From the sequence record PQ303785.1: a DNA stretch of 64,000 nucleotides, one strand, 5' to 3'. Shown here piece after piece: positions 46,988 to 48,584 of the stretch. Position numbers and translations under genes: made by a program. This DNA comes from Escherichia phage LYE-01. Below the pieces are notes generated by a model that did no database searches, had not been told where the DNA came from, and worked only from the letters and a program-made list of their open reading frames with translations. Position 1 is the stretch's first letter, and the number at the start of each line of letters is the position of its first letter.

Positions 46988-47323
46988 ATGTCTGAAATAC
47001 AACAGCTACCAATTCGTGCTGTCGGTGAATATGTTATTTTAGTTTCTGAACCTGCGCAAGCCGGTGATGAAGAAGTTACAGAATCAGGACTTATTATCGG
47101 TAAACGTGTTCAAGGTGAAGTTCCTGAACTGTGTGTAATTCACTCTGTCGGTCCTGATGTTCCTGAAGGTTTTTGTGAAGTTGGTGATTTGACTTCTCTT
47201 CCAGTTGGTCAAATTCGAAACGTTCCGCATCCTTTTGTAGCTCTGGGTCTTAAGCAGCCAAAAGAAATTAAACAAAAATTCGTTACCTGTCACTATAAAG
47301 CTATTCCATGTCTTTATAAGTGA
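46988..47323 (+). CDS. 31: co-chaperonin gp31 (GroES analogue)
   Basis: 111 aa, [38 protein letters not shown]. Confidence 0.9.
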
Positions 47324-47331
47324 TATAAATA
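47324..47331 (+). promoter_or_regulatory. late promoter (TATAAATA) for rIII
   Basis: Exact TATAAATA right after gene 31 stop. Confidence 0.55.
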
Positions 47332-47470
47332 ATAATATGAATTGGGTGTCGGAATAATAAGTTAACCGAACAATTCTATGTGGTAGTCTACAACTGAGAG
47401 ATCTGTCGAAAGAAGATGAAATTCAGAAGAACGTGACTACCGAGTTTTAATCTCTAACGAGAATTTTTAA

Positions 47471-47719
47471 ATGATTAAACAATTACAACACGCTCTTGAA
47501 CTGCAACGAAACGCATGGAATAATGGTCACGAAAACTATGGCGCATCTATTGATGTTGAAGCCGAAGCTCTTGAAATCCTGCGTTATTTCAAACATCTGA
47601 ATCCTGCTCAAACTGCATTAGCTGCTGAGCTTCAGGAAAAAGATGAACTTAAATATGCTAAGCCTCTGGCTTCTGCTGCACGAAAAGCAGTTCGTCACTT
47701 TGTGGTAACATTGAAGTAA
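47471..47719 (+). CDS. rIII: rIII lysis-inhibition accessory protein
   Basis: 82 aa; late promoter upstream. Confidence 0.8.
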   Translation: MIKQLQHALELQRNAWNNGHENYGASIDVEAEALEILRYFKHLNPAQTALAAELQEKDELKYAKPLASAARKAVRHFVVTLK

Positions 47720-47964
47720 TTTATTGGAGATTCACTGCCTTAGTGTGAGCTAAAATCGAGGAGCCGTCGAACTGTCTGATTAATGATTTGCGAATCATTA
47801 TAGTTTTAAGACCCCGGCAGTTTTACGGTGTACCTCTTGAATGTGAATGATGACGGGTTTATGGTTATCCTGGTCGTTAAATATCCAAAAACCTATGTTC
47901 CCCTTGAGGGCTTGCGCAGGCAATGCCAATAAGTCCTGCATTTTCATTTAAAAGAGAATTTATA

Positions 47965-48141
47965 ATGGCAAAACAAGCTAAAGCAAAGAAAGCAGTTGAA
48001 AAGAAAGTTGGTGATTCTAAACGCGCTGGTTACAAGCGTGGGTCGAACTCTCGTATCAATCAAACTGTTGAGAAGATCATGCGCCGAGCACGTGCGGTTC
48101 TTCGAGATGATGCTTCTCGTTTTGGTAAGCAGAAAGCATAA
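47965..48141 (+). CDS. small basic protein (58 aa; 30.9 position)
   Basis: MAKQAKAKKAVEKKVGDSKRAGYKRG; track start 47923 extends upstream; strong terminator follows. Confidence 0.5.
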   Translation: MAKQAKAKKAVEKKVGDSKRAGYKRGSNSRINQTVEKIMRRARAVLRDDASRFGKQKA

Positions 48142-48146
48142 GTTGA

Positions 48147-48170
48147 GGACTCCTTCGGGAGTCCTTTTTT
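48147..48170 (+). terminator. rho-independent terminator
   Basis: GGACTCC-TTCG-GGAGTCC then T6. Confidence 0.8.
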
Positions 48171-48194
48171 ATTTTCCAAAGATTGCACAAAGTT

Positions 48195-48227
48195 GTTTAC
48201 AGTATAGTTCCTTTGTGATAGTATTAT
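48195..48227 (+). promoter_or_regulatory. early promoter
   Basis: GTTTAC 48195-48200, TAGTAT/TATTAT 48219-48227. Confidence 0.55.
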
Positions 48228-48251
48228 CTTACACAAACAAAGGAGAATAAA

Positions 48252-48584
48252 ATGAAAACGATTAATCTGAACGCTGCGGTTAAAGCTAAATGTTTCAATG
48301 GTGAATATAACGAAACTATGTGGTTCTTAATGGCAGTTGAAGGTGATATTATTGAAGTAGAAACAACAGAAGGTATGGGAACAGATTTCACCTTTACAAT
48401 TCAAGTTCATAATTTCTTTACTGGTTGGATTTATGAATTGAATACAGTAATCGTTGGAAAAATTGAACAAAATGAATTAGGTGAATGGTATTATGTTACA
48501 GCTCGCCAACGTGCAGAACGCTTAATTGAGAAGATGAAAAAAGTTGGCAAACTTGACATGCAGCACTGGAAAGTAGTAAAATAA
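48252..48584 (+). CDS. hypothetical protein (30.8 position)
   Basis: ORF track; early promoter, AAGGAG SD. Confidence 0.5.
   Translation: MKTINLNAAVKAKCFNGEYNETMWFLMAVEGDIIEVETTEGMGTDFTFTIQVHNFFTGWIYELNTVIVGKIEQNELGEWYYVTARQRAERLIEKMKKVGKLDMQHWKVVK

Follow-up and report, generated by a model that had tools for sequence, protein, structure and literature searches.

Covarying plus-strand RNA modules in the non-coding spacer between rIII and 30.9 of a T4-like Escherichia phage

Is the 245-bp gap between rIII and 30.9 of Escherichia phage LYE-01 empty sequence, the remains of a gene or a functional RNA? We addressed this question in a window of 64,000 nucleotides (sequence record PQ303785.1; "the window" means this whole stretch), which is about 99% identical to phage T4 overall and 99.2% identical within 47400-48300, its plus strand corresponding to the T4 minus strand. 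The genes are ordered cd, 31.2, 31.1, 31, rIII, 30.9 and 30.8. Few phage genomes have been annotated as thoroughly as that of T4, yet the spacer is bare in the records examined: T4 carries the same gap (244 bp) and no feature is annotated in it in these records. In the literature that we searched, the spacer is not described as an RNA feature, and no transcript data for it were found. Its two flanking genes are as follows.

47471-47719, plus strand: rIII, 82 aa, the upstream flank, 100% identical to T4 rIII
47965-48141, plus strand: 30.9, 58 aa and very basic, the downstream flank; phrog_1427, with the PHROGs label "function unknown"

The gap, placed by the first-pass annotation at 47720-47964, indeed runs exactly from the stop codon of rIII (47717-47719) to the ATG of 30.9 at 47965. 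We take the latter as the conserved start because another ATG upstream, at 47923, is missing from several relatives. Searches of Pfam and the PDB found no relative of the 30.9 protein. Spacers in this region had been described as shorter than 100 bp, and most of them are, but two exceed this length (147 bp from 31 to rIII and 110 bp from 30.9 to 30.8); the rIII–30.9 gap is the largest nearby. It had also been called GC-rich, which is only marginally so, since 13% of 245-nt windows equal or exceed its GC content (0.40, against a window mean of 0.358 with sd 0.04) and neither flanking gene has a lower one (rIII 0.406, 30.9 0.441).

We then considered whether the gap encodes a protein. The frame beginning MMTGLW had been taken for the only one, but the spacer holds two ORFs of 34 aa on the plus strand, one of them starting with GTG, and one of 49 aa on the minus strand, none of which is conserved. 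Some genome annotators do call ORFs here, and together with the presence of the 34-aa and 49-aa frames this might speak for a decayed gene remnant or an unannotated small protein. Against it, the frame starting at AUGAUG varies from 3 to 34 codons across 35 distinct relatives' spacers and ends after 10 or 19 codons in ones that are nearly identical, so that frames are broken even among spacers at least 95% identical; the minus-strand ORF is equally unstable in these relatives, and neither PHROGs nor Pfam gave a match to the spacer ORFs. We regard a coding origin, which had been one of the options proposed for this gap, as scarcely credible.

The feature that had first drawn attention to the gap, a perfect 8-bp hairpin TAATGATT-TGCG-AATCATTA at 47781-47800 followed by TAGTTTT, is present as described. 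Such a hairpin is not beyond chance by itself: perfect 8-bp hairpins begin at 29 positions in the window, as compared with 11 ± 3.4 in shuffles. In addition, the folding z-scores of the whole spacer are weak (-1.5 on the plus strand and -0.9 on the minus strand), not significantly better than shuffles. As the hairpin is not rare and the z-scores are weak, the single sequence proves little, and the evidence has to come from relatives. We collected 40 rIII loci from IMG/VR, together with phage records from GenBank; each of the 35 relatives with both genes identified has an rIII–30.9 spacer, of 120-416 bp. In all, about 770 phage copies of the spacer and about 640 of B, a module described below, were located. 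The alignment of these spacers, which the first-pass annotation had suggested as a check, showed conservation and covariation. One structure recognised in this way is module B, in which the hairpin is only the apical helix.

47758-47836, plus strand: module B, nested helices P0-P3, covarying
47758-61 / 47833-36, plus strand: B helix P0
47764-67 / 47825-28, plus strand: B helix P1
47770-76 / 47816-22, plus strand: B helix P2
47781-47800, plus strand: B helix P3, the originally reported hairpin

Among 21 distinct sequences of B, 98.1% of the cells are paired and 13 of the 25 pairs show double-sided changes. None of 500 shuffles reached this score, and slid controls pair at 26-64%. It is this covariation in relatives, not the single sequence, that makes the hairpin at 47781-47800 real. 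Pairing is more complete on the plus strand than on the minus strand (98.1% vs 93.8%, owing to G·U pairs), and the internal loops CGAA, CUGAUU, UAGUUUUAAGACCCC and UGUA are conserved. A covariance model of B finds one copy in the window, at 117 bits, and no second copy. Natural truncations in L033 (STML-198-type) and in KBNP1711 have lost P3 and upper P2 and kept P0, P1 and the junctions, so P3 is the most dispensable part of B. The hairpin with its TAGTTTT, first seen as a unit of its own, was also considered as an intrinsic terminator and rejected: its stem has one G-C pair, the terminator scan made no call, and P3 is not free-standing, being enclosed by the covarying helices P2, P1 and P0.

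There are also two GGAG motifs in the spacer, at 47726-47729 and 47760-47763, GGAG being the cleavage motif of RegB. Only the second is conserved: situated at the P0/P1 junction, it shows no variation among the 21 full-length copies of B that were aligned, which come from all phage families. The rIII protein has been reported to inhibit RegB activation (PMC9409239). As for differences between the window and T4 (L001) in the spacer, there is a 1-nt indel at 47752 (GCTAAAATCG vs GCTAAATCG) and a G/A difference at 47817 in the 3' strand of P2; the latter preserves the structure, since a U·G pair becomes U-A.

Module B is flanked by two smaller modules, A and C.

47732-47748, plus strand: module A, hairpin with stem UCAC/GUGA and a 9-nt loop UGCCUUAGU
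47847-47898, plus strand: module C, hairpin followed by a conserved A-rich tail GUUAAAUAUCCAAAAACC
47850-57 / 47869-77, plus strand: stem of C, with loop UUUAUGGUUAU

The evidence for A is modest (11 sequences, 93% of cells paired, double-sided changes in 2 of 4 pairs); an alternative register of this hairpin gave zero covariation and was discarded. In C, 90% of cells are paired and 4 of 8 pairs have double-sided changes (23 cells), a score reached by 0 of 500 shuffles. Here too the plus strand pairs better than the minus strand (90% vs 80%, again through G·U pairs). The AUGAUG of C is the start of the MMTGLW frame mentioned above. The covariance model of C finds one copy in the window (69 bits) and no second one. 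Compensatory changes thus stand above both shuffled and slid controls in B and C, the signature of a conserved structured RNA, while A is supported modestly.

The compensatory changes and the fit of the G·U pairs to the plus strand point to selection on RNA. We conclude that A, B and C are independently folding, evolutionarily maintained plus-strand RNA modules, and it is well supported that the RNA structure of this spacer is maintained by selection, modular and partly mobile. Plus-strand covariation supports the structured-RNA options of the first-pass annotation, a small RNA or a 5' UTR. Moreover, conservation of the non-coding modules B, C and D exceeds that of the genes beside them: in comparison with Mosigvirus-type loci, identity is 90-99% for B, 98-100% for C and 93-99% for D, against nucleotide identities of 83-85% for rIII and 77-80% for 30.9. 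Part of this inter-genus identity could reflect recent lateral exchange rather than constraint; phi92, for one, has a nearly unchanged copy of the entire spacer.

Between C and 30.9 lie three further elements, together called module D.

47899-47914, plus strand: module D1, mini-hairpin CCC-UUGA-GGG within the conserved frame GU(A/U)CCC...GGGCUUG
47916-47939, plus strand: module D2, stem-loop GCAGG / CCUGC with a 14-nt loop, then AUUUUCAUUU
47940-47959, plus strand: module D3, weak hairpin AUUUUC / GAGAAU overlapping the 30.9 Shine-Dalgarno AAGAGA (47952-57)

These were read from the sequences and left unscored by covariation. D1 occurs in every relative, with the stem/loop variants CCCU/AGGG, CCUC/GAGG and CCC/GGG(G). 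At the D2 position a stem-loop is retained although its sequence is fully replaced (AACUGG/CCAGUU, GGGAGC/GCUCCC, GGUGGAG/CUCCAC). D3 has a fold energy of -2.4 kcal/mol, and distant relatives carry an analogous hairpin, UCUCC...GGAAGA, at its position. An alternative fold of D proposed by RNAfold, GGGCUUG/UAAGUCC, was rejected because L018 and L033 break it and retain pairing of the GCAGG/CCUGC type.

D1-D3 always adjoin 30.9 and would constitute its leader, in which D3, by partly covering the ribosome-binding site, may damp translation initiation. Ribosome-binding-site hairpins are known from the T4 genes e, soc and I-TevI. D3 resembles them in placing the 30.9 Shine-Dalgarno in a local hairpin, but it is very weak, at the energy given above, and no internal plus-strand late promoter was found in the spacer to relieve it. 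Could the whole spacer then be a leader that controls read-through or translation of 30.9, as an attenuator, an antiterminator or a site of autoregulation by the 30.9 protein? D1-D3 do always stand 5' of 30.9, the D2 stem-loop is followed by a U-rich run, which like the stem is kept in relatives, and D3 overlaps the Shine-Dalgarno. Measured against terminator criteria (at least 5 pairs, at least 3 of them G-C, a loop of 3-8 nt and an uninterrupted U tract), however, D2 with AUUUUCAUUU has 5 bp and 4 G-C pairs, but its loop measures 14 nt, its U tract is broken, and it received no call in the terminator scan. The order of the other modules relative to D varies, unlike in a riboswitch with its coupled expression platform, and B and C are present in phages where a 30.9 homologue is absent. 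Control of 30.9 as the purpose of the whole spacer is therefore quite unlikely. The earlier suggestion of a structured 5' UTR of 30.9 stands in part: the region is structured, but at least the module that includes the hairpin, which also occurs in phages without 30.9, is not simply a 30.9 leader.

How such an RNA would be made can be judged from the signals around the spacer.

47324-47331, plus strand: exact match to the T4 late-promoter consensus TATAAATA, 5' of rIII
48145-48175, plus strand: intrinsic terminator after 30.9, the first convincing terminator 3' of rIII

On the plus strand of the spacer itself, scans for promoters (sigma-70, MotA-box and late) found no match and the terminator scan made no call, so the spacer has no signals of an independent small-RNA gene, although a small RNA may be processed from a longer transcript. 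The sole promoter-scan match in the spacer is TATAAATT at 47957-47964 on the minus strand, which is late-promoter-like with one mismatch to TATAAATA and points antisense into the spacer; it is absent from Mosigvirus-type relatives and hence not conserved. In the annotation of phage SA21RB the site at 47324-47331 is a T4 late promoter; it probably marks a start of a transcription unit running through the spacer. The terminator after 30.9, a hairpin GAGGACUCC-UUCG-GGAGUCCUU plus a U run, is annotated as such in Kha5h and SA21RB. Expression of rIII has been reported from early, middle and late promoters (PMC9409239). Given the lack of plus-strand signals inside, the late promoter upstream, the terminator after 30.9 and the promoters reported for rIII, the spacer is most simply an internal UTR of rIII–30.9 transcripts. 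On balance we favor the reading that the gap is transcribed into a structured, non-coding RNA of modular build, an internal UTR of a unit that extends from upstream of rIII to the terminator behind 30.9; rIII, the spacer and 30.9 would then be co-transcribed, and this RNA may be cleaved.

We also compared the modules with known RNA families. A covariance-model scan, another check suggested in the first-pass annotation, gave no match with E ≤ 10 in Rfam 15 for 47720-47964, the only copies found being those of our own B and C models, one each in the window. Rfam scans of the relatives' spacers gave chance-level matches only, the Rfam tRNA model found no match in 47300-48300, and ARAGORN found no tRNA or tmRNA in the relatives' spacers. 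One candidate was discarded: in the close relative L003, the 3' side of D1, D2 and the ribosome-binding site weakly resemble RF03084 (DUF2815 RNA), a phage 5'-UTR motif, but at 14.5 bits against a gathering score of 41.2 this is not a member, and the resemblance is absent from the window and L018.

Among the relatives, the spacers are mosaics of recurring modules that have been rearranged, lost or gained. C, D1, the stem-loop at the D2 position and D3 were present in every group inspected, in variable order, for example D1-C-D2-D3 in L023 and C-A-E155-D1-D2-D3 in L058. The E155 of the latter is a further structured element, for which the window has an empty site.

47845-47846, no strand: empty site, between ...CTTGAATGT (ends 47844) and ATGATGACG (starts 47847)

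In alignments, many relatives carry at 47844/47847 either the approximately 155-nt structured RNA E155 or a cassette of about 48 nt. E155 (core GCGGCAAGUGCAUGC...GCUAACGGUGUGCAACAGAUAAGAGC) is absent from the window and from T4 and occurs in single copy in 407 phage records, with more than 90% identity across Tequatrovirus, Mosigvirus and the T4-like phages of Klebsiella and Enterobacter; all loci checked have it between rIII and 30.9. This multi-helix RNA, with 97.9% of cells paired and double-sided changes in 17 of 44 pairs, has no match in Rfam. Among our loci it is carried by L003 (945-1100), L013, L014, L016, L020, L022-L032, L058, L059 and L061. A "terminator" annotated in the SA21RB spacer was set aside, as it falls inside E155 and outside the T4-type part. 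The spacer of the window is thus the empty site for a structured RNA of about 400 sequenced phages. The cassette of about 48 nt, UACUAUCACGCGUCAGAAAAAGGUUAUCUGUCUAAGUCGUGGUUGG, is found at the E155 site in T2/PST-type and some Mosigvirus-type phages (L004, L006, L009-L012, L015, L017 and L019), and in L021 a sequence related to it forms the D2-position hairpin.

This shuffling raises the possibility that the element acts as DNA, for example as a recombination cassette or through some other binding of a protein. PeSL (promoter-early stem-loop) cassettes have been documented to mediate module shuffling in T4-type phages (PMC2839356, PMC4122927), and like them, the spacer consists of short intergenic stem-loop modules shuffled among T4-like genomes, being a hotspot of module gain, loss and reordering. 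A circularly permuted copy with a 13-bp repeat at its ends has even moved to phi92 (see below). Nevertheless, lacking an early promoter, the spacer does not qualify as a PeSL: the T4-type consensus TTTACW-N17-TAYWAT (PMC4122927) is not found in 47720-47964. It is found at 48145-48227, where the terminator hairpin is followed by the T4-type early promoter GTTTACA-N17-TAGTAT in a PeSL-like unit between 30.9 and 30.8. In contrast to PeSLs, the spacer modules are larger and nested; they show compensatory changes and conserved loops, and one is found across phage families. The compensatory changes that keep pairing, and G·U pairs that fit the plus strand better than the minus strand, also argue against a site acting as DNA, which we consider very improbable.

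We further focused on B and C outside the T4-like phages. The first such group is Vequintavirinae, with B in W70, A73, A5-4 and LTH01. In A5-4 (L082, 606-1040) and LTH01 (L083), B and C adjoin each other, just as they do in the window, and lie about 25 nt 5' of a tRNA with a truncated D arm (35.8 bits), a tRNA-Met and a homologue of T4 rnaD (species 2 RNA); W70 (L067) has lost C. The second is Kuravirus, in which about 30 genomes have B behind the stop codon of the gene that precedes the large terminase gene and ahead of an intrinsic terminator (loci of Kuravirus and relatives: L069 1196-1350, L079, L080, L081, L087 and L088, the last being KBNP1711, 360-450). In Kuravirus, P1, P2 and P3 of B differ through compensatory substitutions, with unaltered junction sequences. 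B of KBNP1711 consists of the base only, namely P0, P1 and a stub of P2. A G-rich segment in Kuravirus could pair with the C-rich strand of the terminator, an attenuator-like layout. This position just before a terminator that separates two genes, with a segment that could compete, is one more point for a regulatory leader as discussed above.

The third is phi92 (L068, 1168-1512; also L042 and L043), which has the whole T4-type spacer, near-identical, inside a tRNA cluster. The copy is circularly permuted, being fused at the 30.9 ATG to the last approximately 100 nt of rIII, and is flanked by a 13-bp repeat TTTATTGGAGATT; the "rIII-like" gp113 of phi92 is this transferred spacer/rIII fragment. 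A near-identical, permuted copy with such a repeat points to recent transfer, and it is arranged as if a circularised or tandem fragment had been inserted. Homologues of 30.9 are exclusive to T4-like genomes, and B-C is therefore independent of 30.9. When IMG/VR, metagenomes and GTDB genomes were pattern-scanned for divergent B, only T4-like and Kuravirus copies appeared, and E. coli genomes contained no similar sequence, which leaves host mimicry unsupported.

What would B-C do in such places? Its surroundings, a stop codon on the 5' side and a terminator or tRNAs on the 3' side, fit either an element for the processing and stability of polycistronic RNA or a domain that is set free as a stable RNA. 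B-C would be an RNA domain that is autonomous and laterally exchanged and needs neither rIII nor 30.9 to act, most likely as a determinant of processing and stability of the polycistronic RNA. Its compact fold is followed by an A/U-rich single strand, a possible cut site for a host endonuclease; after a cut, the upstream RNA would have its 3' end protected, and the 5' end of the downstream RNA would be capped by a hairpin. In the context of tRNA genes, endonucleolytic processing is the rule, and we counted the position of B-C directly 5' of tRNAs and the rnaD homologue in Vequintavirinae for a processing role. Intercistronic processing hairpins are familiar from phage polycistronic mRNAs, such as the RNase III sites of T7 and the RNase E sites in T4 mRNAs. 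Like these, the spacer has a long irregular hairpin with internal loops in an untranslated region, followed by A/U-rich single strand. The likeness is in layout only, as is that to 3'-UTR or leader structures. The internal loops are far more conserved than in the usual sites. The near-invariant loops of B and the extreme conservation of C exceed the needs of a generic processing hairpin, which suggests a specific ligand or partner.

The conservation of loops along with stems would also suit B-C, or the whole spacer, as an excised, stable small RNA acting in trans, for example by regulating a host or defence factor or serving as a decoy for it. T4 makes small stable RNAs together with its tRNAs, which provides an analogy. 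In Vequintavirinae, B-C lies about 25 nt 5' of two tRNA genes and the rnaD homologue, so that its 3' side would be set by RNase P acting on the tRNAs; phi92 has the complete spacer within its tRNA cluster; and B is sporadic in three or four phage families, independent of its neighbours, which is typical of an accessory function. However, the window has no promoter or terminator of its own for such an RNA, no match in E. coli DNA suggests a base-pairing target or mimicry, and the modules are individually dispensable in some lineages. Although sequence by itself fits both a cis-acting UTR and a released small RNA, we hold the latter to be possible but rather unlikely. The known small RNAs rnaC and rnaD of T4 (species 1 and 2) are non-coding phage RNAs encoded beside tRNA genes; B-C of Vequintavirinae likewise clusters with tRNAs and an rnaD homologue, whereas B-C of the window sits between protein genes. 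Comparison of rnaC and rnaD with B, C and E155, by eye only, showed no resemblance.

A more far-reaching reading is that B with C forms a new class of structured RNA that is passed laterally among virulent coliphages unrelated to each other (T4-like phages, Vequintavirinae, phi92-like phages and Kuravirus) and that, once released as a stable RNA, acts in trans on a host or defence factor; the tRNA-processing machinery would carry out the release in some of these phages. Taken with all these parts, it is unlikely; if true, T4 would encode a previously unrecognised functional RNA. Returning to the favored internal UTR, the spacer is a real, functional-looking non-coding RNA region whose motifs are new but of a familiar general kind. 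Its modules and E155 are candidates for new RNA families and bear on post-transcriptional control in T4-like phages and on the movement of non-coding modules between genomes. B, common to three other coliphage groups, and C, nearly invariant across genera, are testable targets.

A second structured module was seen in the 31–rIII spacer, at 47382-47441 of the window, with the closing stem GGUAGUC/GACUACC and the inner stems CUGA/UCAG and AUCU/AGAU. It is homologous, with compensatory differences, to the D2-position stem-loop before 30.9 in Klebsiella-type phages (GGGAGC...CUGUCGAAAGAAG...GAAGAACGUGCUCCC). As this module of the 31–rIII spacer is homologous to a 30.9-leader stem-loop, leader modules move between the 31–rIII and rIII–30.9 spacers.
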